Assembly: GCA_043817315.1 (NCBI GenBank)
Contig: JBDRGY010000016.1
Location: 69,445 to 133,444, forward strand
Direction of reading: 5' to 3'
Length of the DNA: 64,000 nt
From: Patescibacteria group bacterium
GTDB lineage: Bacteria > Patescibacteriota > Patescibacteriia > JBDRGY01
The notes under the pieces are model-generated. The model saw nothing but the letters and a program-made list of their open reading frames with translations. It was not told where the DNA came from and did not search any database. Position numbers and translations under genes: made by a program. Within the stretch, counting starts at the first letter, position 1. The number at the start of each line of letters is the position of its first letter. Below are positions 11,204 through 59,461 of this stretch, piece after piece.

Positions 11204-11271
11204 GAGTACATAATAAATCTTCCAGGTCTACATGGAGGAACTTATAACTAAATACCATTCAACAAGATAAC

Positions 11272-11297: not shown

Positions 11298-11319
11298 CAA
11301 AAATTAATAATCAATAACT

Positions 11320-14300
11320 ATGTCAATCATTAAAAAAATCGTCTCCATTATCACTGTAATTTCCTTGGTAGCTCTGCTCTATCCCCTGGCTCCTCCTCAG
11401 CCTCAAACGGCCAGAGCAGCCACCCCGGGGAAGTTTACTGATGTATCAGTAACAGCGAGTAATTATACGTACGATGCTGCTGCTAATATTACTTTTACCT
11501 TTACTACAGCCAACTCTCTTACTGCCGAGAATGATGTTATCCGTTTTTATTTTGAGAATTTCAGTGATTGGGCCAACACCTTTACCTTAAGCAGTATTAC
11601 TGACGATGGTGGCTCCATTGATTACATGGAATACAAAAGCACCAATTATATTGAAGTTTACTTAGTTAGCTCCCCTGTTGCAGCCGGTTCAGTGGTTGAA
11701 GCTGTTTTTGCCGTTACTCACAGAGACATTGTTGGTTATGAAAGAGTAGGCATTGTTTCTTTCAGCCCGGACGGTGGGGGCACTGCTTATGAAGGATGTA
11801 CTGATGCCGGAGGGGGTGGTGCTTGGGATGATTGCACCCCTTATTATGTTATAGTGCCGGTTGGTACTCCGGAAGTAAAGGGCCGGGTTTTGGGACCAAT
11901 TGGTACGGCGGATGTCAACAACGGTATTTTTGAAACTAATGTCAATCTCTGGAACAGCGGTGGTTATTGGAATTGGGCCGCTACCGATCATCTCGGTTAT
12001 TTCTATTTCTACCAAGTGCCGACTAGTTCATGCGAGCTGGACTTTAGTAAGCCCTGGGATGCTGGTGTTGCTTACTCTGCTCCTGATAATCAAACTACAA
12101 CAGTAACTAGCGGCTCTACCACTGATATGGGGATTATCAGATACAATCTAGCTTCTGCAACTGGCATCGTAAAAAGAGAAGATAACGGGCAAGCTCTTCA
12201 AGATGTTAATATAAATTTCATGAACATTCCCATGCCCCCTACTAATACCGACGAGAATGGCCGATTCTATCTACCGCGTGTTGATCCGGGAACTTATTAC
12301 GTAATGATCGAAAAACCCTGGGGAGAAGCTGGTGAGGGCTTGGTTAATCCTGAACCTATCTCTGTAACTGTAACGGCCGGCTCTACAACTAATATGGGTA
12401 CCATTTATCTGGAATCAGCCAACAAAACAATCAAAGGTACTGTCAGACATCCTAACGGCAATCCGGTAACCGATGCCCAGATTGGTTGCAACACCCCCAT
12501 GGGCGGCGGTTGGTATTCAGCTACTACCAATGGCGCTGGCTACTATGAATTATTGGTCGGCAAGGGCCACTGGATGTGTTGGGTAGAACATGATTATAGT
12601 ATTCCTGATCACCAATTCAACTGGGTTTATTTTGACATGCCTTCGGGAATAACTTTTTCTGCAGACAATGCAGTAACCGAAACTAAAACTCAAAACTATA
12701 CCGTAACTGCCATTGATTCGACCATCCGTGGGCGAGTATTAAAGCCCAACGGCAGTCCTCTGACGGGCGAACCAGTTAATGTGGAAATCTTTAATCAAAC
12801 CGGTGGCGGTAATTGGATTCAAGTGGATTCAGCTACCGGAGCTTTTTCAGTCGGTGTACCGGCCGGTACTTATCAGGTAATGGTCAACATGTGGAGTGAT
12901 AACTGGGGCGGACCCAGCCCACAAACAGTTACTGTCTCAGCCAATTCTACTTATAATATGGGTAATCTCTATCTTCTGCCAAAAAGTGCCTCTATCTCTG
13001 GTACGGTGTCGGATACAGACAGGGCCGGGCTAAATAATCAATTTGTTGATTGCTGGGTACAGAATGAGTGGGGCAAATGGTCCTCCGGCAACACGAATAG
13101 TAATGGAGACTTCAGCTTTGCTGCCTTTGGTGGTTCTACCTATATGTGCAATCCCATGACCAATATGGGAGGTTGGGGAGGAGAGAATGAAGAGACTTAT
13201 GTTTATTTGGGTGCTCCTCAATCTGTTAATCTTCCTAATGTAACTAGCGCAGCTACCGGCGTAGATTTTGAACTGACCCGAGCTGACGCTACTATTAATG
13301 TAACCGCAGTTGACAGTAACGGAGATCAAATAAACGATATCTGGGGTTACGCTTTTATAGGTATGGGTGACATGATGGGCCCAGGCATGGGTGGCACTCC
13401 AATTGACGGTGGTACCGGTAGCTTCAAAATCCCCTCGGCTCAGTGTCCTGCCAGTTCTCCCTGTTACTTGAGTATTTCTATGCCTCCAGGCCAAGGAGCT
13501 GATTACTCGCCAGCTGGAGCAGTCTCTTTTTCAGTAACAGCTAACGGCACCGCTAATGTAAAAGTAGCTATGGTTCCTAATGATGCCACTCTGACAGGTT
13601 ATATTGTTGACAGTAATGGTGATGCTATAACCGGGGTCAGTGCTGTCGTCTTCGCTGACAAATTCGCAACAATGTCTTTCTTCGAATCTTGGGTAAATAT
13701 TGCTACCGGTCAATACACTATGAATACAGCTCCTGGAACTTATACTCTAGGCTATTTTGTTGATAAATCCACTGGCTATTTAGCCAGTGGGATGACTGAT
13801 AACGAAGTAACTACTGTCTCCGGTCAATCTGTCACCAAGAATTTAACTTTGGCCGAAATCGACTCCTGGATTACCGTTTCCGTCAAGGCACCCAACGGCG
13901 GCCCTATGCCCGGTGCTTTTGTTGACGCCTCGACTCAATCAGGTTTGGGAGAAATTCATGACGGCCCCATGATGGGCCCTGGCATGATGATGGGCCCCAT
14001 GATGGGCCCTGGCATGATGGGTGAAATGACCGGGGCAGATGGTACTGCTACTATTGGTTTGCCCGGCGGATCTACTTATTATGTCTCAGCTTCCCTGCCC
14101 CCTGAAATGAGCTACATCAACCCTGCCAAGCAGGCTGTAACTATAGAATCCGGGGAAACGGCAACCCTTACTTTACAATTCAGAGAATCAGATGCCACTA
14201 TTTATGGCACGGTGACCAAAGATGGCACGGCTACCTATGCCGGTGTCTATGCCTATTCTGATACTGGCGGCTTTACCCAAGATTTTGCCTGGAACGGCGC

Positions 14301-16497
14301 CTATTCTCTAAATGTTACCCAGGGCGATAACTGGCATGTTATTACTAAAGCTCAAGTAGGCAATGATTATTATTCCAGTGGTGAAAAAGTAGTAACAGTC
14401 GATGAGGCCATGGAAACACTTAATTTAGAATTAAGTTTAGCCGTGGCTAATATCCCTGATCCAGTCACTGCTACTTTTACTTGCTCTAATCCGGCGGTAG
14501 TGGCTTTTGCCGACAACAGTGTCACCGTAAACCTACCGGCCGGAGCTCTGTCCGCTAGCCAAGAAGAAACTTGTAAGATTACCCTTACCCCTCAGCCCCT
14601 ACTGCCCGATACTGCCGAAAGAAAAGTATTTAGATTCGGAACAGAAATCGTTGGTTATGTTGAAAATGCAGAAAAGGAAGATCAATTTAATTCCAGTGCT
14701 ACGGTCACTATCTGCTGGAATGCAGAAGCCATGGAAGCACTTGGCTTAACTATAGATAATTTTAATGGTAGTTATTGGGATGAAAGTGCTGCCTCTTGGA
14801 TGGGCACCAATAATTCGACATCGGATGAGGATAATAATTGCATAACCTTCCAAGCTAATCACTTTACTGACTTTGCTATCACTTCAGCTGAAATTTCAGC
14901 TCCCCGGATCACTGTTACTAGTCCAGAGGATGAAACTACAACTATAACGGCAAATTCAATAGTGGTTGAGGGCACGGTTTCTGACGTCAACGCTGATCTG
15001 ACCATCGCCTTGGACGGTACTTCAATTGGCGCAGTATCAATTGACTCTGCCACCGGCGCCTTCTCAGAAACAGTCACAGATCTATCTATCGGCACTAATA
15101 CCATTACAGTTGATGCTGAAAACGGAGTAGGAACGGCTGCTACCGTCTCCAGGACTGTAACTTACGATGCTGCTGGTGAAGGAGATCTGGGCACTGTTAC
15201 CGGCGTTGAATTATCACTGGCTGCCATGCCTTACGGTGACGGAGGCCCTCAAATCAGGCTATTCGACAAAGAGGGCACTGCTATCGGTACCTTCTTCGCT
15301 TATAGTCAAGATCTGGTTGGTCAATTCCAAATGGTCTCGGCCGACTTAGATGGCGATGGAGCCAAAGAGATTATCACCTCAACTGGTGAAGGATTTGGTC
15401 CTCAGATTAGAGTGTTCAAAGCTGACGGCACCTTGCTGGATACTTTCTTTGCCTACCAAGAATCATTCCGAGGTGGTGTTGATCTGGCCTTAGGAGACAT
15501 ATCCGGAGACGGCAACATTGATTTGGTAACCAAGCCGACTCAGGGCGGCGGGCCCAATGTCCGAGTCTACCAATGGGATACCGCTACTCATTCCTTCGAG
15601 CTCCTGGATTGGTTTATGGCCTTTAATGAAGGTTTCCGGGGAGAAATCAACTGGCTACTAACTGATGTGGATAATGATGATGCCGCAGAGATAATCATGG
15701 CTCCCAAATCTCAGGGTGGGCCCAATGTCAGAGTCTACCAGTACAATGGAAATGCCATGGAAGTAAAAGATTGGTTTATGGCTTATGATGAAAATTTCCT
15801 GGGCGGTGTCAATATCCTGGCTGGCGATGTAGATGGAGATAATATTAAAGAAATCATTACCACTCCCCATCAACAAGGCGCCCCCAACGTTAGAATCTAT
15901 CAGTGGAATACCGCTTCCGAACAATATGAAGTGCTCGATTGGTTCTGGGCCTTTCAAAACTCCTTCCGCGGTCAATTCAACACAAAAATTGCCGACGTCA
16001 ACGGTGACGGCAATAAAGACATCATCGTGGCTCCGGCTGAAGCGGGCGGACCCAACGTCAGAGTCTATACCTACAACACAACTGACGAAATTGTTGAGCT
16101 GATTGACTGGTTCTGGGCCTATCAACAGAACTACCTGGGTGGTGTCAATCTGGACATAGCTGATCTGGATGGTGATGGTAATAAAGAAATTATCACTACC
16201 CCCAATGCTAGCGGCGGCCCCAACATCCGGGCCTATGAATACAACCCTGATGATGGAGCTTTTGAAACATTGGATTGGATAATGGCCTATCATGATACTC
16301 ATCGGGGCATGATTGAGACCCAAGTAACTGATTTAGACGGAAACGGTGACAGTGAATTGATAGTTGCACCCTTAACTAATGGTGGTCCCAATGTCAGGAT
16401 CTATAATTATGCTGATGGTGATCTGCAGCTAGACAACTGGTTTTGGGCTTTTGCCGAAACCTTTGAAGGTGGTGTCAACATCCAAACTCTGTATTAA
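11320..16497 (+). CDS. Giant secreted surface protein: signal peptide, several CarboxypepD_reg-like beta-sandwich domains, Met/Gly/Pro-rich low-complexity tracts, C-terminal array of about 9 FG-GAP-like repeats
   Basis: Signal peptide MSIIKKIVSIITVISLVALLYPLAPPQPQTARA. Modules such as GRVLKPNGSPLTGEPVNVEIFNQ...GTYQVMV. Tracts GMGDMMGPGMGG and GPMMGPGMMMGPMMGPGMMGEM. C-terminal repeats GGGPNVRVYQ...DWF[MW]A[FY]...[FL][RG]GG[VI]N...D[VL]DGDG..EII..P, about 58 aa each. Confidence 0.8.
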   Translation: MSIIKKIVSIITVISLVALLYPLAPPQPQTARAATPGKFTDVSVTASNYTYDAAANITFTFTTANSLTAENDVIRFYFENFSDWANTFTLSSITDDGGSIDYMEYKSTNYIEVYLVSSPVAAGSVVEAVFAVTHRDIVGYERVGIVSFSPDGGGTAYEGCTDAGGGGAWDDCTPYYVIVPVGTPEVKGRVLGPIGTADVNNGIFETNVNLWNSGGYWNWAATDHLGYFYFYQVPTSSCELDFSKPWDAGVAYSAPDNQTTTVTSGSTTDMGIIRYNLASATGIVKREDNGQALQDVNINFMNIPMPPTNTDENGRFYLPRVDPGTYYVMIEKPWGEAGEGLVNPEPISVTVTAGSTTNMGTIYLESANKTIKGTVRHPNGNPVTDAQIGCNTPMGGGWYSATTNGAGYYELLVGKGHWMCWVEHDYSIPDHQFNWVYFDMPSGITFSADNAVTETKTQNYTVTAIDSTIRGRVLKPNGSPLTGEPVNVEIFNQTGGGNWIQVDSATGAFSVGVPAGTYQVMVNMWSDNWGGPSPQTVTVSANSTYNMGNLYLLPKSASISGTVSDTDRAGLNNQFVDCWVQNEWGKWSSGNTNSNGDFSFAAFGGSTYMCNPMTNMGGWGGENEETYVYLGAPQSVNLPNVTSAATGVDFELTRADATINVTAVDSNGDQINDIWGYAFIGMGDMMGPGMGGTPIDGGTGSFKIPSAQCPASSPCYLSISMPPGQGADYSPAGAVSFSVTANGTANVKVAMVPNDATLTGYIVDSNGDAITGVSAVVFADKFATMSFFESWVNIATGQYTMNTAPGTYTLGYFVDKSTGYLASGMTDNEVTTVSGQSVTKNLTLAEIDSWITVSVKAPNGGPMPGAFVDASTQSGLGEIHDGPMMGPGMMMGPMMGPGMMGEMTGADGTATIGLPGGSTYYVSASLPPEMSYINPAKQAVTIESGETATLTLQFRESDATIYGTVTKDGTATYAGVYAYSDTGGFTQDFAWNGAYSLNVTQGDNWHVITKAQVGNDYYSSGEKVVTVDEAMETLNLELSLAVANIPDPVTATFTCSNPAVVAFADNSVTVNLPAGALSASQEETCKITLTPQPLLPDTAERKVFRFGTEIVGYVENAEKEDQFNSSATVTICWNAEAMEALGLTIDNFNGSYWDESAASWMGTNNSTSDEDNNCITFQANHFTDFAITSAEISAPRITVTSPEDETTTITANSIVVEGTVSDVNADLTIALDGTSIGAVSIDSATGAFSETVTDLSIGTNTITVDAENGVGTAATVSRTVTYDAAGEGDLGTVTGVELSLAAMPYGDGGPQIRLFDKEGTAIGTFFAYSQDLVGQFQMVSADLDGDGAKEIITSTGEGFGPQIRVFKADGTLLDTFFAYQESFRGGVDLALGDISGDGNIDLVTKPTQGGGPNVRVYQWDTATHSFELLDWFMAFNEGFRGEINWLLTDVDNDDAAEIIMAPKSQGGPNVRVYQYNGNAMEVKDWFMAYDENFLGGVNILAGDVDGDNIKEIITTPHQQGAPNVRIYQWNTASEQYEVLDWFWAFQNSFRGQFNTKIADVNGDGNKDIIVAPAEAGGPNVRVYTYNTTDEIVELIDWFWAYQQNYLGGVNLDIADLDGDGNKEIITTPNASGGPNIRAYEYNPDDGAFETLDWIMAYHDTHRGMIETQVTDLDGNGDSELIVAPLTNGGPNVRIYNYADGDLQLDNWFWAFAETFEGGVNIQTLY

Positions 16498-29462: not shown

Positions 29463-32400
29463 TTAAAAAAAGCCAGCCGCTATAGTAACTCCGCCTGTAT
29501 AGGAGACGTCATAGGCCAAAAATTCTGGCGACAATAACCGTCCTTCCTGGTTGTAGATCCTGATATAGGAAGCCCCTGAGCCCCCGACCCCCGTAATGAT
29601 CTCATCGTAGCCATTTCCGTTGGTGTCAACGGCCGTAACCGACACACCACCCCTTGAAGCCTCATCAAAGGCCATAAAACCAGGACTTAGTATTTCATAG
29701 GCCTGACTACGTCCCACCCCGAATATTCTGACATGGGGTCCGCCACTGCTGACAATTCCCGTTATGGTCTCTTGCTTGCCATCGTTATTGACGTCACCGG
29801 CACAAGAAGTGATGCCGCCTCTAAAACTTTCCTCATAGGCCATAATTCCTAAAGTAACTGGTGTATAGCGCCCTTCCCTCATGCCAAATATCCTGATATG
29901 AGGACCACCTCGGCTAGTGGGCGTAGTTATCAATTCGCTGATACCGTCACCATCCACGTCAGCAATGGAGACAGCAATTCCACCTCGAAAATTTACATCG
30001 TAAGCCATAAAATTCTCAGTGGTCGGAACTATCTCTCCGTTTCTCAGGCCGAATATTCTGACATTGGGACTGCCGCCACTGATTGGAGCCACTGCTATTT
30101 CATAGAGACCATCGCCTTCAATATCACCCACCCCGATATTGATACCGCCTTTAAAATTGGCGTCATAAGCGTCAAAATCCCAACCCAGATTGTTGCCGTC
30201 AACATCAAAAACCTTGATAGTAGGAACACCGCCCTCTCTGGTACTGGTAATTATTTCTGAAATTCCGTCACCATTGATGTCTCCTACAGCCACATTGATT
30301 CCTCCCCAAAAATCCATATCATAAGCGTAGAAATAATTTACCATCGTACCGTCAGTATTTAAAACACCAACTAGTGATTGACCATTTGACTTGGGGCCAG
30401 TAACAATGTAACGGTTGAGGGTATAAATATAAGTAAAGTAGGTGCCGTCAGAAATGTTATCCAGATCATCTACTGATTTTAGATGCAAATAGTAGGTGCC
30501 GTTGGCCGTCAGGGTAGGGACACTGAAATTAGTTCCAGTCTGGAAGGAACCGTCTTCGGCATCGGCAGTCAAGTCAGTTGATAGGTTCACATAATAACCT
30601 TTAATATCACTGGCAGCATCTACCGCCGCACTCCAGGTAAAGTAGGGTTGGGGGTGGCGATAGGAAACAGTGGCGGGATCAGACAACGCCTCCGTAGCTG
30701 TGCTGCTTGAGTAAACAGAATAAGTGGTAGGATCGGTAGGGCCTGTTTTGTCGATATTGGCGACTGTGGCTGTTGCACTTCCCGGGTTGCCGATTGAGTC
30801 AGCAAATTCAAAGGTGAAGCTGCCGTTTGCGGTAAATGTATATGTGGTAGCACCACTGTTGTTGGTTACAGTAACAGTTTCACTGGGCACTAAAGTGGCC
30901 ACCACGCTTTGATTAGTCGCGGCAGTGGTCGAATAGCTAATGGTGGCAGTGGGGGCTGTGGCATCGGTCTGGCTAAGCGCGTTATTGGCGTTGATCCGAC
31001 CACCGGTTTTAACTTTTCCGGTTAATGAGCTTTTGGTTTCAACATTATCGAGAATGGCATCTTTTATACCGGCATAGGTGTAATTGGGATTATATGACTT
31101 TAGTAAAGCAGCTAATCCGGCTACGTGCGGTGCTGCCATCGAAGTCCCGTTCATGTATGCATAGTTCTGTAGAGCAACAGTCGGATAGATAATCCTAATG
31201 TCATCAATTGCCGCTCCAAAATAATTGCTGTCTGATCCATTGGTCTCCCAGGTAAATCTCACTTTCATATTGCTATCTTTGTAGCTGGAAACATTAAATC
31301 CGCCAGTCCCCGATGTGGCTGAGCCGCAATAATATCCTAGTTCGGTCCAAGAACTACCGTTATAAACATCAGCCGACAGATAATCATTAAAGCATAGGGT
31401 TGAATCCTCTGCTTCCACATAATAATAGTATTGAAAAATAACGGTACTTTGTCCGGCAGTGTTAATGGCATCCGAGGTTAATACCCCGTCAGAGCTAGTC
31501 TGATAGGGGGAATAAGAAGTGTCACCATAAGCCCAGACATTGCCACTGGCAGTATCGGTCATCCAATAGTTATTGGTGCCGCTGCTGGTAAAATCCGTGC
31601 CATTAAAGCCCGGCTGGACGGCATTTTCGAACCCTTCATCGAATTCAAAATAAGGCACGGTGCTATATATATTAACTCCAGGAGCAGCCACATCAACTGA
31701 GGTGGTGCCATAATTGGAAAAGCCGGCCAAACTATCGTTTTGATCGGTGGCGGCCACTGAAATTATATTATCCAGATCATAATCAGAGGGATATTGATGA
31801 GTTCCTCCATCGTTGTTAGTAGCGTCATTGCCAGCTGCTGCCACTATCAAACAGTCGTAAGTAGTCATACCCTCCTCTATGGCGTCATACATGGCCTGCG
31901 AATAGCCAGATCCCCCTAGGCTCATGTTGATAACATCAGCTCCTTGGTCATAGGCTTCGTAAATTCCAGAAACGATATCAGCGTTCGTCCCGAAACCCGT
32001 CAGCCCCAATACCCTGATTGGCACAATTTTGATATCCGATCCAAATCCGGCAATCCCCTGTCCGTTATCAGCTACGGCCGCAATCACCCCGGCAACGTGA
32101 GTGCCGTGATCCAGAAAATCGTAGGCATTGGCATCGTCATCTACAAAGTCATATCCTTGTTCAATTTGAGAACTCAATTCGGGGTGGTATAGAGCTACTC
32201 CGCTATCAATCACGGCTACTGTTGCTTCGGAAGTACTGGCACCGGCCACAACATCCCAGGCGGCCGGCATGTCAATATCGGCATCGGCAGTGCCGGCGGT
32301 ACCGTTGACGGTCTGTCCTGTATTGTGTAGGCCCCACTGAACACCGTAATAGGTGTCGTTGGGGGTACTGGAGGCTTGATAAATATAATTAGGCTCTACA

Positions 32401-32747
32401 TACTCGACAAGCGGATTATCAATTAGGCCCTCGACAAGCTGCTGGGTGGTTTGACTATCAGATTTTAGTAAAGTAATGTTTTGTCTGGCTAATCTGGTTT
32501 TTTCCGTAAGATTTTCGCCCCGAGCCAGTGCTGTCATTTTATTTATTCCCCGGGACTGATTGAGGTCCAGATCGCTTTTCTTAAATTTCACCAGCACTTC
32601 TCCCTCTATATAGTCAGCCTTTTGTCTGTCGAACTCGGGCAATCGACCAACGCTGGAGCTGGCCGTTAATCGAGGAAATAAAATTAAAACAGCTATCCCA
32701 AAAATTAGAATAGCCCCAAGTCGTTTTATTTTTTTTGAGATAACCAT
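29463..32747 (-). CDS. Secreted subtilisin-like serine protease (peptidase S8) fused to a C-terminal array of about 7 FG-GAP-like propeller repeats
   Basis: Catalytic triad motifs AVIDSGV (Asp), HGTHVAGVIAA (His), GTSMAAPHVAGLAALL (Ser). N-terminal signal/anchor and an I9-like propeptide. C-terminal repeats GG-x-P-x-[IV]R[IV]FG...[FM]AYD...FRGG[IV]...[GA]D[VI][DN]GDG..E[IL]IT homologous to those of the other three large proteins. Own promoter (TTGTCA, 17 nt, TATAAT) at 32780-32809 on the minus strand. Confidence 0.85.
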   Translation of the reverse strand: MVISKKIKRLGAILIFGIAVLILFPRLTASSSVGRLPEFDRQKADYIEGEVLVKFKKSDLDLNQSRGINKMTALARGENLTEKTRLARQNITLLKSDSQTTQQLVEGLIDNPLVEYVEPNYIYQASSTPNDTYYGVQWGLHNTGQTVNGTAGTADADIDMPAAWDVVAGASTSEATVAVIDSGVALYHPELSSQIEQGYDFVDDDANAYDFLDHGTHVAGVIAAVADNGQGIAGFGSDIKIVPIRVLGLTGFGTNADIVSGIYEAYDQGADVINMSLGGSGYSQAMYDAIEEGMTTYDCLIVAAAGNDATNNDGGTHQYPSDYDLDNIISVAATDQNDSLAGFSNYGTTSVDVAAPGVNIYSTVPYFEFDEGFENAVQPGFNGTDFTSSGTNNYWMTDTASGNVWAYGDTSYSPYQTSSDGVLTSDAINTAGQSTVIFQYYYYVEAEDSTLCFNDYLSADVYNGSSWTELGYYCGSATSGTGGFNVSSYKDSNMKVRFTWETNGSDSNYFGAAIDDIRIIYPTVALQNYAYMNGTSMAAPHVAGLAALLKSYNPNYTYAGIKDAILDNVETKSSLTGKVKTGGRINANNALSQTDATAPTATISYSTTAATNQSVVATLVPSETVTVTNNSGATTYTFTANGSFTFEFADSIGNPGSATATVANIDKTGPTDPTTYSVYSSSTATEALSDPATVSYRHPQPYFTWSAAVDAASDIKGYYVNLSTDLTADAEDGSFQTGTNFSVPTLTANGTYYLHLKSVDDLDNISDGTYFTYIYTLNRYIVTGPKSNGQSLVGVLNTDGTMVNYFYAYDMDFWGGINVAVGDINGDGISEIITSTREGGVPTIKVFDVDGNNLGWDFDAYDANFKGGINIGVGDIEGDGLYEIAVAPISGGSPNVRIFGLRNGEIVPTTENFMAYDVNFRGGIAVSIADVDGDGISELITTPTSRGGPHIRIFGMREGRYTPVTLGIMAYEESFRGGITSCAGDVNNDGKQETITGIVSSGGPHVRIFGVGRSQAYEILSPGFMAFDEASRGGVSVTAVDTNGNGYDEIITGVGGSGASYIRIYNQEGRLLSPEFLAYDVSYTGGVTIAAGFF

Positions 32748-37954: not shown

Positions 37955-38632
37955 TTAATTATTATTCCCGTCTTCTTTTTTGTAGAGAATTTGTCTGGTT
38001 ACGACCCTTTCTTGACTGCGTTCTTTGGATACAACAATGGTAATGGTATTAACCCCTTCTTGTAAATCGACAGTTTTTTCAAAGTGACCAGCTGGGTCGG
38101 CTAATACTGTTTGTCCGTTGATAACAATAATTGCCTCTGCCTCGGTCTGGCCAGCTACTATCACTTCAGCTTGATTAATTGTCAGATTGTCGGGCGGGCT
38201 CTCAAGGATTAGCTCGGGGGGGACAAAAATCATCTTAATCTGCAGTCCCAGATAGATCAATATGGCAACTACTATGACCATGATGACTGAGTTGCGGATT
38301 GTTTTGGGAGTAATTATGGATTTCGGCATTTCTTCGGATTTCCGTGGTTTTTTTACTCTGGTTACAATATTACTTTCTTTCTGATACAGACCTAAAACCA
38401 TATCTGGATTAACTTGCATATATTCGGCGTATTTTTTCAAAAAACTTTTAGTATAAATTTCACCAGGCAATCGGTTGTATTCACCTCTTTCTAAAAATTC
38501 AATATACTTTTTTTGAATTCCAAGTTCTTCTTCGATCTGCTCTAAAGAAACATTGGCCTCTTGGCGCATGCGGGCCAACCGCTCCCCCAAAGTAGTACTG
38601 CCGATTACCCTTTTACCACTAAAATCTTTCAT
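37955..38632 (-). CDS. RodZ-like protein (XRE-type HTH, single TM helix, C-terminal beta domain)
   Basis: HTH ([25 protein letters not shown]), one TM helix, C-terminal DUF4115-like region. Confidence 0.55.
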
Positions 38633-40894: not shown

Positions 40895-40957
40895 AGTTCT
40901 AATATTAAGTTACTACATTTTAGCATTTTTGGTTGCTTTTAGCAAGGTGAAAACAGC

Positions 40958-40987
40958 CAAAAAAGACGGGTCTACCCCGTCTTTTTT
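40958..40987. terminator. Bidirectional terminator; left boundary of the GC-rich island
   Basis: AAAAAAGACGGG-ucuac-CCCGUCUUUUUU. Confidence 0.7.
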
Positions 40988-41003
40988 GGCTACTTACTGC
41001 TTT

Positions 41004-41216
41004 TTACCCGCCGGGCGGACCAACCGCTTGGTCAGGTTTGTCCTCGGTGCAGCAAGAATGAGGATGATCTGACCAGCAGGTTTTTATCTGTCCCCAGGTG
41101 GTACAAGTACCGTATCTAACTGGTCTAGCATCAGCCGCTTGAATTTGCAGGGCGACAACTGCGACTATGGCCACCAATAAGCAGGAGGCCATAATAACGA
41201 CATTTCTTTTGCTCAT
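41004..41216 (-). CDS. Small Sec-secreted 4-cysteine peptide, paralog 1 (mature about 39 aa)
   Basis: Signal peptide with A-D-A cleavage site, then RPVRYGTCTTWGQIKTCWSDHPHSCCTEDKPDQAVGPPGG. Strong RBS AGAGGGGGUGAG 5 nt upstream. Confidence 0.6.
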   Translation of the reverse strand: MSKRNVVIMASCLLVAIVAVVALQIQAADARPVRYGTCTTWGQIKTCWSDHPHSCCTEDKPDQAVGPPGG

Positions 41217-41268
41217 AATCTCACCCCCTCTCCTAAGAGGTTAATATTTAATAATTCACTTAATAAAT

Positions 41269-41469
41269 TTATTGAGGGTCGCCTACCTGGCTTTTAGGCT
41301 CTCCGCAGCAGGTGGCTGGGTTAGAGCCAAAACAGGATTTTATCTCCCCCCAGGTATCACAAGGCCCTTGTGTTTGTGCCCCTCCTCGGGCCTCGGCCAT
41401 CTTAACTCCAACCCCAGTGGCGATTAAAAGTAATGCCAGGCATACGCCCAGAATTATCATTTTTCTCAT
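41269..41469 (-). CDS. Small Sec-secreted 4-cysteine peptide, paralog 2
   Basis: Signal peptide (A-E-A site), then RGGAQTQGPCDTWGEIKSCFGSNPATCCGEPKSQVGDPQ. Same RBS AAAGGGGGUGAG. Confidence 0.6.
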   Translation of the reverse strand: MRKMIILGVCLALLLIATGVGVKMAEARGGAQTQGPCDTWGEIKSCFGSNPATCCGEPKSQVGDPQ

Positions 41470-41509
41470 AGACTCACCCCCTTTCTTTGAATCTTTTTAA
41501 TAACTATTT

Positions 41510-41719
41510 TCATTGTGGCTGCTCAATTTCGTCGACTATATGCTGGCAACACGGGTGATCGTTGCCTGGGTCTGCATCAAAACATTTCTTTAGTTCTGAC
41601 CAGGGGATATAACATCCATCAAGGTTATTTATCCTGGCTTCTGAAGTTTTTATTTTTACCCCCAAAATAACCATAGCAATTAGCAAAAAACAAGCGCTAA
41701 TAATAACTGTTTTTTTCAT
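41510..41719 (-). CDS. Small Sec-secreted 4-cysteine peptide, paralog 3
   Basis: Signal peptide (S-E-A site), then RINNLDGCYIPWSELKKCFDADPGNDHPCCQHIVDEIEQPQ. Same RBS AAAGGGGGUGAG. Confidence 0.6.
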   Translation of the reverse strand: MKKTVIISACFLLIAMVILGVKIKTSEARINNLDGCYIPWSELKKCFDADPGNDHPCCQHIVDEIEQPQ

Positions 41720-41831
41720 AAGCTCACCCCCTTTCGGTAGTCATTTAATGGTAAAACCTCCAATAAGGGCCGCTTGGCGATGAACGTATCACCACCAAGC
41801 GGGACCAATGAAGGTTCTACTCACAAGCTGG

Positions 41832-44753
41832 CTACTTGAGAAGCACCATCTTGCGCGAAGAACACTGTTGCCCTGTCTCCAGCCTATAGAAGTAAACGCC
41901 GGAGGCAACGGCTCTTCCATGGTTATCCCGACCTTGCCAGACCGCAGCCTGCTGACCAGCTTCCTGCTCTTCGTCAACAAGGTTGCAGACCAGTCGGCCC
42001 GCCACATCATAGACATAGAGCTGAACTGGGCCAGCTTGGCTAAGGCTGTAGGCGATGGTGGTAGTCGGATTGAAAGGATTGGGATGGTTGGGCAGCAACC
42101 GGAATGAGAACCCAGCTTCGGTGGCTTCCGCAACCCCGGTAGCGATGTCTTGCCAGCCAATCGGCAGAGTAGGATCACCCAGGATCGAGTACATCCGGAT
42201 CTGGTTATGAGTCTGAGGACACTCCTCGTAGGCCAGCTGCTTTGCTGCCAGCGTGGCCTCACCTAGTGTAGTTTCGTTCCCCATGTAGAGCTCACCCGCC
42301 AGATAACTGAAGATTTTGGAGTTGGTGTACTGATCTGAGATATCTGTAGGCCCCATCCAGGCCCTGGCTCCCTTGCCAGGTGCTGTCAGGAAGTCAGTAG
42401 CCATGTCCAGGCCCCAGCTGGATTCACCTCTGGTGAAATCAGCCATGCCGCAGCAGAAGCCGAAAACGATAGGACTGGTCCAGTTTTCTACCAAGTAAGT
42501 CATGTCGAAGTAGTTATTCCACTTGGTCAGAATAGACCCGTTGCTGATCCGGTTGGCCAAAGTGCTGAAGTAGAACTTGTAGTCGATTCCCGCATTCTGG
42601 ATAGCACAATCTGCATCCCGCCTGGCGGAATAGGAGAAAGGGTCATCCGAATAACGGTAAATCGTGGTACTGGCAGCCAGCTGCGGATCAAACTGACCAT
42701 AGATACTCATGGCCAGCGTCTCGGCATAGGCACCGCGGCAGCCTGACAGATTCCAGTTGCCAATCATCAGACCAGCCTGACAACGACCAGAGCGATCAAG
42801 ATGCCATTCTACAAACTTGTCGGCAACGATCCACAGCTCCTGGAGAGTATTGATTGGCACGCGGCCTACGGCTATGTTTTCTTGTCCATCACCGTCGGTA
42901 TCTCCGTACCAACCATCCCAGGCATAGAGATCATCGTCGCTGTAGTAACAACCGTCCCAGAGTACGTAGTAGCTTTGAATCAGATTCTGCCCTGGGAGCA
43001 GTCGATTGGCATCACCCCACAAAACAACGTGGGTAGGCAAGGGGTCCATAGCCAGAATGTAGTCTTTGATGTCCTGCGGCTGAGAAGTGGTCCCGAAATC
43101 TTCCAGGGCCACGAACTGAACCAGATGACCTTCTAGATACTCCAGGGTATAAACCCAGTAGTCCAAATGGTCAATCCAATCCGCCGGGCAGACACAGAGC
43201 ACATCCGGGTCAGTCAGCCCCCCATCCTTAGGTTCGCCATCTGGTTGCGGAGGTGTCTGATACTTGGGCTGGTAGACAACCGGCTCCACAAGTTCTGGTG
43301 GTTCCGGCCAGCTAGACAGTACCTCGGTGGAAAGATGCTCCAAGACATTCCCGCTTATCTCCATCTCAACAATCTGATAGAGAAAGTCGGGCTGTCCAAC
43401 AACATCACTCCAGTAATACTGGGCCCCTTGACCATCACTGCCCTGATGCCAGATCGGTTCACTGACTGTCTGCCAGGTAAATCCATCATCGAAAGAGCAT
43501 TTAACCTGGAAGTAGTCAGTGTCCTTTTCTGACTCAGTTTCCCAGTAGACGATTACCTGCCCACCTTCTTCTACGGCAGTCACTCCCAGCACTGATGCAG
43601 CTGGCGGTTCACCGTATTCGGAATAGTAGGCGGTTACGTAATCGTCATGGCTGGGGGGTCGGCAGTTTTTGCCGCTGTAAAACGGCGGTTGACCAAGGGG
43701 GTCAGTGTTGCCGTTAAGATAGCGGTCTTCACTATTTCTGCCTTTGACCTTGTCCCAGTTGACCCAACGAGGAAACTCACCGTAGGCGTGTACCCGGATG
43801 TCGTATTCCAGCTTGGTGTCGGAGTCTTTCAGCTCAATGTTTTCCAGCTCGGCATAGATTGAGGGCATACCAAGGATATCTTCTATGTTATCCTCTGCCT
43901 CAATCGGCGTGTCGAACTCGACATAGGCATCGTTGAAGCTGGATGACTGAAAGACGTAACCGGAATCCGGATAAACCGCACAAACAGCTGGAAACAACAC
44001 TGTATTGTCGTGGCCAACTATAGACCAGGCACCGTTGGTAGAAAACATGTGCTGATAGCCATGTTGAACCGTTCTTTTGGTCCGTCCTCGCTCGGCATTG
44101 AGATAGGTACAGAAGGTATCAATGCTAGCAAAGGCTTGAGTGTTAATCAGCTCTGGACAGTGACCAATGGCAGTGCCTGCTCCCCATTCATCCAGCCAGA
44201 GAGCACTAAAACAGTATTCGGCCAAGACAATAGACCGTTCATCCCCGGCAAAATCCCGACAGATATGAGGCCTAACTCCAATGCCATAATATCCTGTATA
44301 CCCGAAGTAGGCAGGATAAATGTCATCGGGGTAGCTGTATTGACCCCTTCTGACGTAGCGAATCAGGGCAGAGTCCCGGTCAGCCGAATGTCTGTAGGCT
44401 TCGATCATTAAACCATCAGGGCCATTGGCATCATTCTCGGTGCCGTGTGAAGAGATGGCCAGAATGGAAATCCCAGGCGTGCTGATCACGCTTCTGAAAT
44501 CAGCGATGGAGAACCGGGGAATGGTGTCAGGAGCCGGAGAGGTAACGTAGTACTTTTCCATGTCCAGATGGCTTTCTGTTTCCATCCGGTCAAAGGGAGC
44601 ACTATCGTCACCAAACTGAAACTCCCAAAGCAACAGATTAACCACTGTGCTGGTGTGCACTGTCCGATACTGATCAATGCGCTGCCAGGCTACATTGACC
44701 ACGGGTATCAGTAGCAGTCCTACCAACATGATTGTTGTGATTCTCTCTTTCAT
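41832..44753 (-). CDS. Large secreted protein with a T9SS-type C-terminal sorting domain (Por_Secre_tail-like) and a putative clan-CD (gingipain/C25-like) cysteine-peptidase region
   Basis: N-terminal signal peptide. The C-terminal 85 aa or so, FSFRLLPNHPNPFNPTTTIAYSLSQAGPVQLYVYDVAGRLVCNLVDEE...AVWQGRDNHGRAVASGVYFYRLETG...RKMVLLK, matches the type-A T9SS CTD pattern (NPFNP-x-T-x-I-x-Y-x-L, YD-x-x-GR-x-V, W-x-G-x-D-x-x-G-x-x-V-x-SG-V-Y-F-Y-R-L, K-[ML]-x-L-[LI]-K). An H-G dyad (ISSHGTEND) and a hydrophobic-strand Cys (IVLAEYCFS) suggest a caspase-fold protease. Real start is the ATG at 44753 (RBS AGGGGGG 8 nt upstream); the track ORF begins at an in-frame GTG. GC clearly higher than flanks. Confidence 0.6.
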   Translation of the reverse strand: MKERITTIMLVGLLLIPVVNVAWQRIDQYRTVHTSTVVNLLLWEFQFGDDSAPFDRMETESHLDMEKYYVTSPAPDTIPRFSIADFRSVISTPGISILAISSHGTENDANGPDGLMIEAYRHSADRDSALIRYVRRGQYSYPDDIYPAYFGYTGYYGIGVRPHICRDFAGDERSIVLAEYCFSALWLDEWGAGTAIGHCPELINTQAFASIDTFCTYLNAERGRTKRTVQHGYQHMFSTNGAWSIVGHDNTVLFPAVCAVYPDSGYVFQSSSFNDAYVEFDTPIEAEDNIEDILGMPSIYAELENIELKDSDTKLEYDIRVHAYGEFPRWVNWDKVKGRNSEDRYLNGNTDPLGQPPFYSGKNCRPPSHDDYVTAYYSEYGEPPAASVLGVTAVEEGGQVIVYWETESEKDTDYFQVKCSFDDGFTWQTVSEPIWHQGSDGQGAQYYWSDVVGQPDFLYQIVEMEISGNVLEHLSTEVLSSWPEPPELVEPVVYQPKYQTPPQPDGEPKDGGLTDPDVLCVCPADWIDHLDYWVYTLEYLEGHLVQFVALEDFGTTSQPQDIKDYILAMDPLPTHVVLWGDANRLLPGQNLIQSYYVLWDGCYYSDDDLYAWDGWYGDTDGDGQENIAVGRVPINTLQELWIVADKFVEWHLDRSGRCQAGLMIGNWNLSGCRGAYAETLAMSIYGQFDPQLAASTTIYRYSDDPFSYSARRDADCAIQNAGIDYKFYFSTLANRISNGSILTKWNNYFDMTYLVENWTSPIVFGFCCGMADFTRGESSWGLDMATDFLTAPGKGARAWMGPTDISDQYTNSKIFSYLAGELYMGNETTLGEATLAAKQLAYEECPQTHNQIRMYSILGDPTLPIGWQDIATGVAEATEAGFSFRLLPNHPNPFNPTTTIAYSLSQAGPVQLYVYDVAGRLVCNLVDEEQEAGQQAAVWQGRDNHGRAVASGVYFYRLETGQQCSSRKMVLLK

Positions 44754-44766
44754 GGCATCCACCCCC

Positions 44767-45387
44767 CTAATTCGAAGAGTTGGATGGCTGCTCAGTTGCC
44801 TTCTCGGTCACGATCAAGCCGTCCTGGTAGTACACTCTGCGACCTTGCTGCAACAAGCGAGCCAACAACGCCATGCGAGATTTGGCCATAGCTTCGTCTG
44901 TTCTAGTCGGACTAGTCCTGGCCTGGAACACCTTGAGCTTGGGAATAGGAAAGTCCCGTTCCTTAACCTGGATACTTCCATTGTCCAAGACCTTAACCCA
45001 CTCGTAGATGTCAGGGTGCTGGCCATACACTGCGTCAGCAACCTGCTGGGTAATTTCTTTCTTGTCACGACCAGGTTCTGCATCGACCAGCTGCTGGAAC
45101 AGGCTATAGGCCTGATCATCCAGCTGATCCTTGATGTTGACTGAATCGGGCTGTTGCATCTTGGTGTCGCCAAGGGTCGGGTAAATCCTGACTCCATTGA
45201 CGAAGGCCTCGCTCCCCACAACCTTAAGGAAGTAGGGGCCAAGCACTTCCTGCTCACCCTCTTCATCAACTACCACGAACTGACCCGTCTCTATCAAGAG
45301 ACTGTCAGGCAGCGCGGGCGTGTCGTTGGCTACTACAGTCACGGCCATCAGGGCCACGATCATCATTGCGAGACTAAGGTGTCTCAT
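44767..45387 (-). CDS. Secreted hypothetical protein (206 aa), first gene of the island operon
   Basis: Start trimmed to MRHLSLAMMIVALMAVTVVA (ATG at 45387, RBS AAAGGAG). Signal peptide. Its stop TAG overlaps the RBS of the 976-aa gene. Confidence 0.5.
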   Translation of the reverse strand: MRHLSLAMMIVALMAVTVVANDTPALPDSLLIETGQFVVVDEEGEQEVLGPYFLKVVGSEAFVNGVRIYPTLGDTKMQQPDSVNIKDQLDDQAYSLFQQLVDAEPGRDKKEITQQVADAVYGQHPDIYEWVKVLDNGSIQVKERDFPIPKLKVFQARTSPTRTDEAMAKSRMALLARLLQQGRRVYYQDGLIVTEKATEQPSNSSN

Positions 45388-45532
45388 GGTGGTCACGCTC
45401 CTTTCAGGATTACTCCAACTGCCAATTGACCAATCGATCTGTTGCGGCAAGAAAACACCTCCTCTCAACCACGTTAGACGTTTACTGCGCTTTCCTTTCT
45501 TAGAAAACCATGGATTTTCAAGGTACGTATCC

Positions 45533-45552
45533 AAAAAAAACCTCATATGAGG
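45533..45552 (-). terminator. Intrinsic terminator on the minus strand about 200 nt downstream of rpoC; right boundary of the island
   Basis: Minus strand reads GAAAG-CCUCAUAUGAGG-UUUUUUUU. Confidence 0.65.
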
Positions 45553-45752
45553 CTTTCAAGCTATAGTCCGTCTATAACAAGACGTGCCGGTTTCGCTACT
45601 AGCTCCCTGCAGTTCAAGCGACCAGATACAAACTACAGTTCTTAGCCTCACCTTTTGTTTCCGTCGGAATAGCACTTCTGTCAATAGAACTTATCCACAG
45701 GGGTAACAAAAAACCCGATTTCTTAGCACTTTTATCAGGTTTCTTGACTATT

Positions 45753-56920: not shown

Positions 56921-59461
56921 CTATAGATTAACCCCGTTGAGGTAGCCCTTGGGATAGGCAATAAATTCATTGAGCAATAAAGTGCCCCGCCAATTGTATA
57001 CTCTGACCTTAGCTACGTCGCCACTTTCTATTGCTGTCACTATTTCAGCCTGGCCGTCACTATCCAGGTCAGCACTGGCCACATTGACTCCGCCCTGAAA
57101 GGAAGAATCAAAAGCCATGAAACCAGGGTTTAATAAACTGATGGTACTTTGTCTGTTGCGGCCAAATACTCTGATATGCGGTCCTCCAGCGGACACTACT
57201 CCGGTGATAATTTCATCAGCTCCATCGCTGTTTAGATCGCCGCAGGCTAAATTAATACCGCCCCGGAAACTTTCCTCGTAGGCCATCAAGCCCAGGATAA
57301 CCGGGCGATAGACGCCATTACGATAACCAAAGATTCGTAAATGAGGCCCCCCCTGAGATTTTGGGGCAGTTATGATTTCTGACAAACCGTCTCCTTCCAG
57401 ATCGCCGACAGCCAGATTGACCCCGCCGCGAAATCCTGAATCATAAGCCATGAAATTCTCGGTGGTCGGCAAATACTGTCCGTTGCGATAACCGAAAATT
57501 CGAATATTGGGACCGCCTCCGGAAAGTGGAGCCACTACTATTTCAGCCAAGCCACTGCCGTCCAAGTCACCGGTAGCCAGGGCTAACCCTCCTTGAAAGT
57601 TGCTATCAAAAGCCAGTACCACTTTTTCCAGAGTTCCCTGGGTATTAAATATCCTGATTTCGCCCCGACGGCCCGGGCCGGAAGCTGTAATAATTTCTTG
57701 ATTACCATCGCCATCCACGTCAGCTTTAGCCACCTTAACACCGCCACGGAAACTTTCTTCAAAAGCCATGAATTGGCTGACTAAATTTCCGTACTGATCC
57801 AATATTCTGACCTGGGGACCTCCTCCCTGTTTGGTGCCAGTAATAATCTGGTTGGTTACTTGAAAAGGCTCAAAGTCAGTTTGTAACGTATAAGTAGCCG
57901 AATCTTGATTGCCCAACCAATAGGCTTGGTTGAAGTCAGTAATGTCTAAGAAATGATATTCCATTTGTCCTGCTGCGGCCAGGCGAACGACCAGCCCCGT
58001 ATCAAACATACGATCAGTCGGATATGGAATAGCAGTATGGCCGGCAACTATGCCCTGGCTGTGATCATGGAGATCGGCGTAGCTAAACGGGTTTCTGGTT
58101 TCCATGAACATCCCCCAATAGGTAGAGGCCGTCTCTGAAGGGATTGTCCAAAGGCCCGAACTGTTAGTACCTCCGGAATACTTAATCATGTCTTCAAAGC
58201 CATAGGCTGATTCCTGAAAAATGGCAATTCCTGCTTGGGGCAAAGGATCGCCGTTTTTGTCCAAAACCTTTATCTTATTTTGAGCTGGAATATCTTTTAA
58301 ATACTCCCCGGGTATGCCCCTCCGCTTGGGCAGTCCCCTTCTATCTCCTGAGATGTCAGTGTAATAATTGTTAAAACGGATCAGGGCCAATATGGAATAT
58401 TCGGAAAAATACTGCTCGTTGATACTGTTTAAGAGGCCCGAGTGTCTGTTTTTATAAACATAGTCAGTCTCCACCTCGAGCATGCCCAGTCCACCACCTA
58501 CTGTGGCTCCATCCTCATCAGTAATATGAACATCAGAAGTATAAATAGATAGCTTAGACAAATCGACTAAGCCCAGGGTGTTAATGGCTAGGTTGCGCAA
58601 TAAATTCCAGTCAGTCGTTTTGGCATAAGCATTAACATAATCAGGGTCAGCGCACCAAATTCCCCGGTCCAGACAATCGTTGTCATCATAATCCCAAGCA
58701 ATATTCCAAGAACCATCGTACAGCCAATCCTCGGACCCAGTGCTACTGTCTATCTCACCATTGGCATGAATGTAAATATTATCAATTCGGACCCGTAGAT
58801 TAGCGCCGCTTGAAGTAGTAGAGCCCGTGGCACCGGTTAGGGCTTGATTCAAAATTTCATTGAAGGCACTGACTTGCTGCTGCAGCCAGTCTTCACAAGA
58901 ATAGGACCCTGCGCTGTTTTTCTGGTAATCAAAAGCGGAACAAAAGCCTTCCTCGACATGAAATATTAAGGAGAGGGTGTTGGTCTTTTCGGTCAATAAG
59001 TTATTCTGTTCTGATATTTCTTCAATGGTACCCTCGGGGTCAACCTGGAATTTGATGGTGTGGGTCCCGTCCACCCAGCGCCACAAATAGTCTTGAGTGG
59101 TGTAAGAGCCAGGGTTGAGATTGCTAATGGTTCCCGACGAAACTTCGACACCGTCAACGTACCATTTAAAACCAAACTCCCCTGAGATAACATTGCCCTG
59201 ATTGGTAATCTGAGCAGTGAATGTAACCATCTCTTCTTCTTCGGGCCAGCGCTGCCAGAATTCAGTACCAGTTTTCAGACGATACTGGCCATTCAATCCT
59301 CTTTCGGTGTGATATTTTTCATAGCGAGGTGTCCTGGAAATAAAGGTAACGTCCAAATCGGCCAGTTCACTCTCGTCTGTTGTCGCTTCTGTCTTCTCAA
59401 CCAAAAAGAAGCCGGAGATTATTAGGGCTAAAATGACTAGATAATATTTTTTCTTAACCAT
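56921..59461 (-). CDS. Secreted 846-aa protein with a C-terminal array of about 6 FG-GAP-like propeller repeats
   Basis: Signal peptide MVKKKYYLVILALIISGFFLVEKTEA. N-terminal beta-sandwich, then an unassigned middle domain. C-terminal repeats GGGPQVRILDQYGNLVSQFMAFEESFRGGVKVAKADVDGDGNQEIIT... homologous to those in the 1463-aa, 1725-aa and S8 proteins. Overlaps cutA by 25 nt. Confidence 0.75.
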   Translation of the reverse strand: MVKKKYYLVILALIISGFFLVEKTEATTDESELADLDVTFISRTPRYEKYHTERGLNGQYRLKTGTEFWQRWPEEEEMVTFTAQITNQGNVISGEFGFKWYVDGVEVSSGTISNLNPGSYTTQDYLWRWVDGTHTIKFQVDPEGTIEEISEQNNLLTEKTNTLSLIFHVEEGFCSAFDYQKNSAGSYSCEDWLQQQVSAFNEILNQALTGATGSTTSSGANLRVRIDNIYIHANGEIDSSTGSEDWLYDGSWNIAWDYDDNDCLDRGIWCADPDYVNAYAKTTDWNLLRNLAINTLGLVDLSKLSIYTSDVHITDEDGATVGGGLGMLEVETDYVYKNRHSGLLNSINEQYFSEYSILALIRFNNYYTDISGDRRGLPKRRGIPGEYLKDIPAQNKIKVLDKNGDPLPQAGIAIFQESAYGFEDMIKYSGGTNSSGLWTIPSETASTYWGMFMETRNPFSYADLHDHSQGIVAGHTAIPYPTDRMFDTGLVVRLAAAGQMEYHFLDITDFNQAYWLGNQDSATYTLQTDFEPFQVTNQIITGTKQGGGPQVRILDQYGNLVSQFMAFEESFRGGVKVAKADVDGDGNQEIITASGPGRRGEIRIFNTQGTLEKVVLAFDSNFQGGLALATGDLDGSGLAEIVVAPLSGGGPNIRIFGYRNGQYLPTTENFMAYDSGFRGGVNLAVGDLEGDGLSEIITAPKSQGGPHLRIFGYRNGVYRPVILGLMAYEESFRGGINLACGDLNSDGADEIITGVVSAGGPHIRVFGRNRQSTISLLNPGFMAFDSSFQGGVNVASADLDSDGQAEIVTAIESGDVAKVRVYNWRGTLLLNEFIAYPKGYLNGVNL

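Follow-up and report, generated by a model that had tools for sequence, protein, structure and literature searches.

Small exported WGxIK peptides as possible partners of an adjacent C25-like surface protein in a Patescibacteria contig

Organization of the locus

The window—by which we mean the whole stretch of 64,000 nucleotides (nt) analysed here, taken from contig JBDRGY010000016.1 of a Patescibacteria metagenome-assembled genome (MAG; GCA_043817315.1)—carries on its minus strand three adjacent genes for small peptides with predicted export leaders: pepA (41510..41719; 69 aa), pepB (41269..41469; 66 aa), and pepC (41004..41216; 70 aa). Upstream of pepA, across a gap of 112 nt, lies a minus-strand gene (41832..44762) for a predicted exported protein of 976 aa, which protein is C25-like (gingipain/PorU-like), with a middle domain resembling FN3 and an Ig-like C-terminal domain of the kind used by secretion systems of type IX (T9SS). 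Farther upstream on the same strand is the first gene of the cassette (44767..45387), for an exported protein of ~206 aa, whose probable start is the ATG at 45387 behind the ribosome-binding site (RBS) AAAGGAG, the mechanical open reading frame (ORF) extending to 45546; and between that gene and the rpoC stop (45753) we found a cyclic di-GMP (c-di-GMP)-II riboswitch aptamer (45576..45659, minus strand). The cluster contains only the exported protein of ~200 aa, the C25-like protein, and the peptides, and is closed before ftsK by a Rho-independent terminator (40954..40992, minus strand) having a 17-bp stem plus a U-tract (−32.7 kcal/mol, z −6.0).

The three peptide ORFs lie exactly where the first-pass annotation, made from the letters of the DNA, had placed them, and have the lengths (66–70 aa) that it gave. 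The conservation of the RBS likewise stands: in a DNA alignment the block GA.AGGGGGTGAG is invariant 5–6 nt ahead of each ATG. Each product consists of a leader, a core—CYIPWSELKKCFDADPGNDHPCC in pepA, CDTWGEIKSCFGSNPATCC in pepB, and CTTWGQIKTCWSDHPHSCC in pepC—and a tail, which reads IVDEIEQPQ, GEPKSQVGDPQ, and TEDKPDQAVGPPGG, respectively. The invariant columns are, in the pepC numbering, M1, I8, C12, C38, W41, K45, C47, P52, C55, C56, and P68, with C..W..K.C…P..CC as the common framework. Judged by eye, the leaders are Sec-like and not of the GG type: a K/R-rich N-terminus is followed by a hydrophobic stretch of 18–19 residues and then by an A-x-A site before Arg, which sites (ADA-R, AEA-R, and SEA-R, with cleavage before the Arg) predict mature peptides of 39–41 aa that begin with that Arg. 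The hydrophobic region is also long enough for a membrane anchor, and the AlphaFold2 model of pepC, with a predicted local-distance difference test score (pLDDT) of 70, shows a single helix at 3–28 as well as a short helix at 41–46 spanning WGQIKT; a fold neighbour of that model was looked for in the PDB and none was found. A lipoprotein reading of the leader Cys was rejected, that residue lying only ~10 positions into the leader, and the hydrophobic stretch running on past it. As had been proposed, the products appear to be exported mini-proteins capable of forming disulfides.

The pairwise identity of the three peptides is 26–39% and their synonymous sites are saturated; therefore, the triplication that the first-pass annotation had recognized is real as a set of three paralogues, but is an old event and not a recent one. 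The closest relative of pepA is P0004, a family member from outside the window, and pepC is recorded at NCBI as the hypothetical protein ABIB97_06110 of a Patescibacteria group bacterium. The C-termini, for their part, are diverged overall, as had been noted, but not simply so, since the Patescibacteria subgroup shares a tail pattern like K-[DES]-[EQ]-[IMV]-x-x-P (TPKDEMNQQ, TPKDEINQP, FKEEIEQPN, IVDEIEQPQ). Two short ENA contigs (L001 and L002) carry near-identical copies of the genes (99.8–99.9%), one of them with an H-to-Y change in pepA. In L002, a low-coverage contig, nucleotides 1–130 do not match the window and the other 1140 nt are 99.9% identical to it, which mismatch is due to a chimeric assembly or else to a strain rearranged within the C25-like gene.

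Homologues of the peptides

An exhaustive HMMER search with a profile of the three peptides against 1.84 billion proteins (cluster representatives) gave 28 matches, ~20 of which have the same Cys/W/K framework, with independent homologues at E values of 2.6e-20, 1.1e-12, and 1.3e-11. These homologues, together with a ratio of nonsynonymous to synonymous substitution rates (dN/dS) of 0.23 in the orthologous peptide pair from the contigs L003 and L007—the ratios being 0.11 for C25 and 0.05 for ftsK in the same comparison—establish that the peptide genes are real, and more than chance reading frames; the genes are under purifying selection. In an alignment of 21 family members C, W, K, C, and CC are invariant and P is nearly so, most members have a conserved Lys 2–6 residues past the CC, and nearly all have small-x-small sites after the hydrophobic stretch. 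The FG-GAP repeat proteins among the matches (P0007, P0011, P0016, P0024, and P0026–28) were judged spurious, in that they share only NWGQVKK and have no cysteines.

None of the three peptides had a match above threshold in Pfam or NCBIfam, the PDB profile search with the family came out empty, back-translated scans of the GTDB genomes gave no match, and a word-indexed search of 5.8 billion proteins recovered only the query peptides themselves. The literature searched for the WGxIK motif and for C25 in Patescibacteria yielded nothing relevant. Pfam, NCBIfam, and the PDB do not contain the family, and the literature searched offered no account of it. The first-pass annotation had not recognized the motif as that of a described bacteriocin family; the nearest approach was lactococcin 972 (TIGR01653), which model pepC reached with 14.7 bits (E 0.028) against a cut-off of 32.1, and pepA and pepB not at all.

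Linkage to a C25-like gene

At 14 of the 14 distinct loci in which the downstream DNA was readable, a member of the family directly follows a gene for a Peptidase_C25-like protein of 930–1030 aa with a T9SS-type Ig tail, and in the cassettes the C25-like gene is itself preceded by one for an exported protein of ~200–270 aa. The co-occurrence with the 976-aa protein, which the first-pass annotation had raised as a point to be checked, thus holds wherever it could be read.

The loci were looked up in two directions: from the peptide, or from the protease, the latter procedure being blind to the peptide. Starting from the peptide, we found its gene 40–130 nt downstream of, and co-oriented with, a gene of ~930–976 aa combining Peptidase_C25 with FlgD_ig/Por_Secre_tail, and this in contigs of varied character: an 86-kb JGI contig (L003/L004), one rich in transposases (L005), those with a context of the rpoC/ftsK type (L006 and L007), those in which a gene for a tetratricopeptide-repeat (TPR)–Redoxin protein comes next (L008–10), and short ones (L011–13). 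Starting from the protease, both of the two GTDB matches—in a Candidatus Krumholzibacteriia MAG and a UBP1 MAG—had a gene for a 117-aa module protein 30–40 nt after the C25-like gene; the metagenome loci L018–L022 again had a module gene in that position; and four further C25 homologues led to L023/L024 (with two tandem 4-Cys peptides), L025, and L026/L027, where the same arrangement recurs. One other contig (L028) was truncated. The sole locus with no partner was L017, in which a group II intron (RF02003, 78.8 bits; 8819–8958) is inserted 30 nt past the C25 stop and the contig ends inside that intron, just where the partner gene would be expected.

Within the 20 kb of L005 the C25-like/peptide pair is surrounded by several genes for rve-type integrases/transposases and one for a transposase of the IS91 type, which context is consistent with mobility of the cassette; no C25 relative was found in the viral contigs searched.

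The motif and the cysteines

The sole universal element of the partner proteins is nine residues long, [ST]-W-[GS]-x-[IL]-K-x-x-[YF], and in six-frame translations of all the loci and of the 64-kb window the matches to the expression [STCN]W[GSAT]x[IVLM][KR]xx[YFW] were confined to the downstream partner genes. The architecture around that element varies freely. Some partners are peptides of 56–72 aa; others string several modules on one chain (two in P0025, three in P0017); others are proteins of 108–129 aa, with the partners of 116–120 aa ending in a second, Cys-less copy of the motif, TWGAIKSLF; and still others, of 315–432 aa (P0021 and P0022), begin, once mature, with the module and end in a T9SS-type tail. 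A T9SS sorting domain is carried by these two long members and by the L018 protein, whereas by Pfam and NCBIfam it is absent (TIGR04183/PF18962) from pepA, pepB, and pepC. Among the partners that lack cysteines the motif occurs as SWGALKTGYRE or TWSKLKSRYRE, and the partner in L026/L027, of 67 aa and likewise Cys-less, contains ATRVSWGALKTGYRENS and has a Pro-rich tail; the partner in L025 is of 114 aa and ends in TWSKLKSRYREGNDKQEG.

The number of cysteines per module is 0, 4, 6, or 8. CxxC and CCxC, which make up the outer pair, occur jointly in 14 of 14 modules and are both missing in 16 of 16, and a further Cys pair co-occurs in both of the modules that have it (2/2); seven copies of the motif have no Cys at all. 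Since cysteines are gained or lost strictly in pairs, disulfide staples are indicated, and the pattern points to a mini-domain that would be stabilized by predicted disulfides about a motif modelled as a short helix (residues 41–46). The first-pass annotation had staked the family on its four-Cys framework, which ~20 homologues do keep; because Cys-less homologues exist, however, what is conserved as a unit is WGxIKxx[YF] and not that framework, the cysteines being an elaboration of the nine-residue motif. Directly downstream of the 6-Cys member in L008, and also in L009 and L010, is encoded a 431-aa TPR plus Redoxin/thioredoxin-like protein (3370–4665 in L008), which may serve the module as an extracytoplasmic thiol-disulfide oxidoreductase.

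This diversity of form bears on the suggestion, made in the first-pass annotation by analogy with defensins, conotoxins, and bacteriocins, that the peptides are secreted antimicrobials or signals—in which circumstance the C25-like protein would be at most a maturation protease trimming the acidic tail after the post-CC Lys. With lactococcin 972, class II bacteriocins, defensin-like peptides, and mini protease inhibitors the peptides share a small size, an export leader, an even number of cysteines in a disulfide framework, an expansion into paralogues, and occasional tandem modules; the post-CC Lys found in most members and the chains of P0017 and P0025, which resemble multi-core precursors, could be added, as could the weak similarity of pepC to lactococcin 972. 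That similarity, however, falls far below the cut-off of its model; the peptides match none of these groups in sequence or fold, the linkage to a C25-like gene is obligatory here, and the module also heads T9SS-tailed proteins of 377–432 aa and occurs in Cys-less variants. Nor does the dN/dS of the peptides indicate diversifying selection. Moreover, no transporter, immunity, or modification genes accompany the peptides in the window cassette or in the homologous loci: of the attributes of the class II/double-glycine bacteriocins, neither a GG leader, nor a C39-peptidase ATP-binding-cassette (ABC) transporter, nor an immunity gene was found there; and, with respect to ribosomally synthesized and post-translationally modified peptide precursors, the cluster has no modification enzyme, the nearest radical-SAM gene being ~16 kb off among housekeeping genes. 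Because the gene context gives it no support, we did not retain the antimicrobial interpretation of the first-pass annotation and consider it quite unlikely.

The C25-like protein

Residues 522–867 of the 976-aa protein match Pfam Peptidase_C25 (PF01364) with 87.7 bits against a gathering score of 23, and its C-terminus matches the T9SS sorting domain Por_Secre_tail (TIGR04183) with 36.8 bits against a cut-off of 23, so that the first-pass annotation was right in placing the peptide genes directly after a protein with a T9SS C-terminal domain; such a domain is here seen on the protein of a Patescibacteria MAG. The profile of the C25-like family aligns to RgpB (1cvr/4ief; E 1e-14) and to PorU (6za2; E 7e-10). 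In common with the gingipains and PorU, then, the protein has an alignable C25 domain, a nucleophile Cys in an ACxxGxF-like context, and the Ig-like tail: C771 is invariant in 11 homologues, and the ACVNGDF of RgpB (Cys244) aligns with ASCGIGDF. In contrast, the catalytic His, which is in TGHGS in RgpB (His211) and in AGHGG in PorU, is replaced by Thr or Ser in 11 of 11 sequences (GTSST; STLAN in the window), and no invariant His was found anywhere in the C25-like domain in the alignment of those 11. A conventional His/Cys protease activity of this C25-fold protein is, as read from its sequence, unlikely. It differs further from PorU in reaching only 51.5 bits of the 420 required by the PorU equivalog model (NF033707), its C-terminal tail holding the stretch that scores best, and from both PorU and the gingipains in its Patescibacteria host, in an extra N-terminal half of ~500 aa with no detectable relatives or known domain, and in its small WGxIK partner, not described for either. 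We dropped the notion that the N-terminal ~180 aa might constitute a second clan-CD domain with a His–Cys dyad (SHG…C), the His being D or F in two homologues; that ~180-aa region had no Pfam or PDB match.

The C25 enzymes act after Lys or Arg, that is, with a basic P1, and a Lys/Arg is invariant in the motif of the partners. The peptides might be conceived of as exported proteins that inhibit their cognate C25-like peptidase, or serve it as safety catches, with that Lys as a P1 mimic and with the tandem modules acting as do multi-headed inhibitors. The strict adjacency to a protease-like gene and the position of the invariant Lys/Arg beside a Cys predicted to be disulfide-bonded would agree with that idea, and the succession of a protease gene and the gene of its cognate inhibitor is a known arrangement, as in the staphopain–staphostatin pairs. 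A domain devoid of the catalytic His may nevertheless have no activity to inhibit, Cys-less and unstructured-looking versions and large T9SS-tailed fusions are atypical of inhibitors, and no similarity to inhibitor families was found in Pfam or the PDB, for which reasons we hold inhibition to be improbable. The same loss of the His speaks against a maturation protease in an antimicrobial system.

Riboswitch and transcript signals

The window aptamer matches Rfam RF01786 over the full model (1–84) with 69.0 bits (gathering score 53.5; E 2.5e-13), and further RF01786 aptamers precede the cassettes of two related Patescibacteria contigs, L003 (56.2 bits) and L006 (54.8 bits); the leaders of all three are thus predicted to hold c-di-GMP-II riboswitches. 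Nineteen nt downstream of the window aptamer lies an intrinsic terminator, GAAAGCCUCAUAUGAGGUUUUUUUU (45533..45557, minus strand), which element is the probable expression platform. The L003 and L006 aptamers likewise have a terminator after them. The 5' half of the window terminator, UUGAAAGCCUCA, is kept in the L003 and L006 leaders and is complementary to the aptamer segment GUGAGGCU. Because the minimum-free-energy folds of the ligand-free window and L003 leaders form this UUGAAAGCCUCA/GUGAGGCU antiterminator pairing, the modelled structures suggest an OFF switch. The presence of riboswitch and terminator ahead of the cassette would tie its output to c-di-GMP in this lineage. Among the larger ORFs of the window we saw no GGDEF, EAL, or PilZ genes, and the literature searched on c-di-GMP riboswitches in the candidate phyla radiation (CPR)/Patescibacteria contained no paper linking the two. 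The protein of the first cassette gene has no match in Pfam or NCBIfam, and is weakly but significantly similar to the products of the equivalent upstream genes in other cassettes (E 4e-10 for L025 and 2e-5 for L023).

Elsewhere c-di-GMP governs attachment versus motility, and a riboswitch for that messenger in front of the cassette points to surface and lifestyle biology and not to chemical warfare, which again counts against antimicrobial peptides. The typical targets of c-di-GMP riboswitches are adhesins, pili, and surface proteases (PMC6366702). The module of Clostridioides difficile, in which such riboswitches with terminators govern the adhesins CD2831 and CD3246 together with the protease that releases them, ZmpI/PPEP-1 (PMC6366702), is alike in setting a c-di-GMP riboswitch plus terminator over a protease-type surface protein and its short-motif targets, but there the protease is a metalloprotease and the class II switches turn expression ON, whereas here the protein is a His-less C25, the targets would be mini-proteins, and a single class II switch, predicted to be OFF, stands before the whole cassette.

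A second signal lies in the spacer between the C25-like gene and pepA: a strong stem-loop (41770..41802, minus strand) with a perfect 14-bp stem within a longer helix (41748–41824). The fold of the 116-nt spacer has −50.9 kcal/mol (z −5.5), and 0 of 200 shuffles were as stable; hairpins of a similar sort, rich in G+C and in some cases with U-tracts, are seen at the equivalent place in L023, L003, L006, and L026.

Synteny and evolution of the cassette

In the window, L003, L006, L007, and L023/24 the cassette occupies the same slot, between rpoB–rpoC on one side and ftsK, a helix-turn-helix (HTH) gene, and recA on the other. The part of the window with the C25-like gene and the one upstream of it (41750–45500) has 52–53% GC against ~42–43% in the flanks, which island could raise the suspicion that the locus is an assembly chimera or that the peptide genes are chance reading frames. 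The first possibility is countered by the rpoC–cassette–ftsK synteny, which is found again on contigs obtained independently from other samples (L003, L006, L007, and L023) and showing the same GC contrast; the second, by the strength of the best homologues (to E 2.6e-20), the purifying selection, and the conserved RBS; the likelihood of either is next to nil. Throughout the five Patescibacteria contigs the GC content is 49–57% in the C25-like gene and the one upstream of it and 39–47% in the flanks, that of the peptide genes being host-like. Since five divergent contigs agree in this contrast and in the synteny, we rejected a recent horizontal transfer, as well as a chimera, as the cause of the island.

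Between the window and L023 the identity is 79% for rpoC and 76% for ftsK, but 36% for the C25-like protein and 25% for the upstream one; between the window and L003 the corresponding values are 70, 63, and 27%, with the upstream protein undetected. The C25 protein of L003 is nearer to the versions in L017 and L005, and that of L006 is closest to the one in L025, a GC-rich and non-CPR-looking locus. Because the GC contrast recurs and the similarity of the C25 proteins does not track that of rpoC and ftsK, replacement of the cassette at the fixed rpoC/ftsK slot is suggested, and these data point to a fast-evolving cassette that is probably exchanged between lineages at that site.

Proposed role of the peptides

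The explanation that we favour, with a probability of roughly 0.55, is that the three genes encode exported, disulfide-stapled WGxIK partners of the C25-like surface protein encoded next to them, the cassette that holds them being linked to c-di-GMP. The peptides would constitute the third and variable part of that cassette, which would thus comprise the exported ~200-aa protein, the C25-like surface protein, and one to three WGxIK proteins; the peptide genes may be co-transcribed. The functional core of each would be a module of ~20–25 residues built on [ST]-W-[GS]-x-[IL]-K-x-C-[YFW], in which two disulfides would staple the short helix, and this module may be a dedicated ligand or substrate-like partner that docks at a conserved cleft near the retained C771, where its invariant Lys/Arg would suit the preference of C25 peptidases for a basic P1. 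With the catalytic His missing, this may be a matter of binding, capture, or some non-canonical chemistry, and not of ordinary proteolysis.

In its architecture the cassette would most resemble the pairs formed by a sorting enzyme and its substrates, or by a receptor and its ligand. The systems sortase–LPXTG, exosortase–PEP-CTERM, and PorU–C-terminal domain likewise set a protease-fold protein beside otherwise freely varying proteins that share one short motif. In the present cassette, however, the motif is usually at the mature N-terminus, is often disulfide-stapled, and has no transmembrane segment after it, and without the His a transpeptidation chemistry cannot be deduced by analogy.

Several observations weigh against our proposal. 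The loss of the catalytic His weakens its substrate half; the HMMER alignment to RgpB gave no assignment for the acidic residue of the S1 pocket; and the model of the 976-aa protein, from an input of 5 sequences, is poor (pLDDT 49.7), and Foldseek retrieved with it only RgpB (E 6e-13), FlgD-Ig, and FN3. With regard to c-di-GMP, L023—the closest relative—keeps the promoter-like TTGACAGAAGTG and has no aptamer, and the riboswitch is absent in all the non-Patescibacteria loci. In addition, the hairpin in the spacer before pepA may be a terminator, and the peptides may therefore be transcribed separately, escaping the riboswitch. Finally, a T9SS-type tail is hard to account for in this host, Patescibacteria not being known to have an outer membrane or a T9SS, and the leaders, with 18–22 hydrophobic residues, might be uncleaved membrane anchors.

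The last two points together form the basis of another explanation, namely that the N-terminus is an uncleaved signal-anchor and the WGxIK part, as an extracellular knob, holds the secreted C25-like protein on the surface of a cell that lacks an outer membrane. A T9SS-tailed protein in such a host would need some other means of attachment, the strict pairing of the genes would be accounted for, and the hydrophobic stretch was modelled as one helix. Nearly all members, nevertheless, have small-x-small sites past that stretch, and the long forms bear the motif either at their very C-terminal end or on cargo with a T9SS tail, positions unfit for a membrane-proximal tether. We consequently regard a tether as unlikely, and prefer the explanation of exported partners, whose leaders would be cleaved at the predicted sites.

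If that pairing is functional, the WGxIK module would add a small domain to those known, and the C25/gingipain-like proteins, familiar otherwise as Arg/Lys-specific proteases and as the T9SS sortase, would gain a new class of partner; the pairing would also provide a concrete surface module under second-messenger regulation in Patescibacteria, whose attachment biology is poorly known. The cassette is compact, with a riboswitch, three types of protein, and a motif of nine residues. As a tentative and rather doubtful extension, one might envisage that WGxIK and the His-less C25-like protein make up an unrecognised surface ligand–receptor system—or one of Cys-dependent capture or transpeptidation—exchanged horizontally between candidate phyla of the Fibrobacteres–Chlorobi–Bacteroidetes (FCB) type and Patescibacteria, wired in the latter to c-di-GMP through the class II riboswitch, and there controlling whether these episymbionts attach to, or are released from, a host cell.

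Other features of the window

Beyond the cassette, ftsK is always followed, in the window (37955–38632) and in the homologous stretches of L003, L006, L007, and L023, by a gene for a protein with HTH_25 and a Glucodextran_B-like domain, whose architecture is perhaps RodZ-like. The window is, in addition, rich in giant exported proteins: four very large predicted surface proteins with FG-GAP repeats are encoded at 6726–16497, 29463–32747, and 56921–59461. Two of these proteins, of 1463 and 1725 aa, contain CarboxypepD_reg domains, another is an S8 subtilase of 1094 aa whose prodomain is fervidolysin-like, and the last is a CARDB protein of 846 aa.

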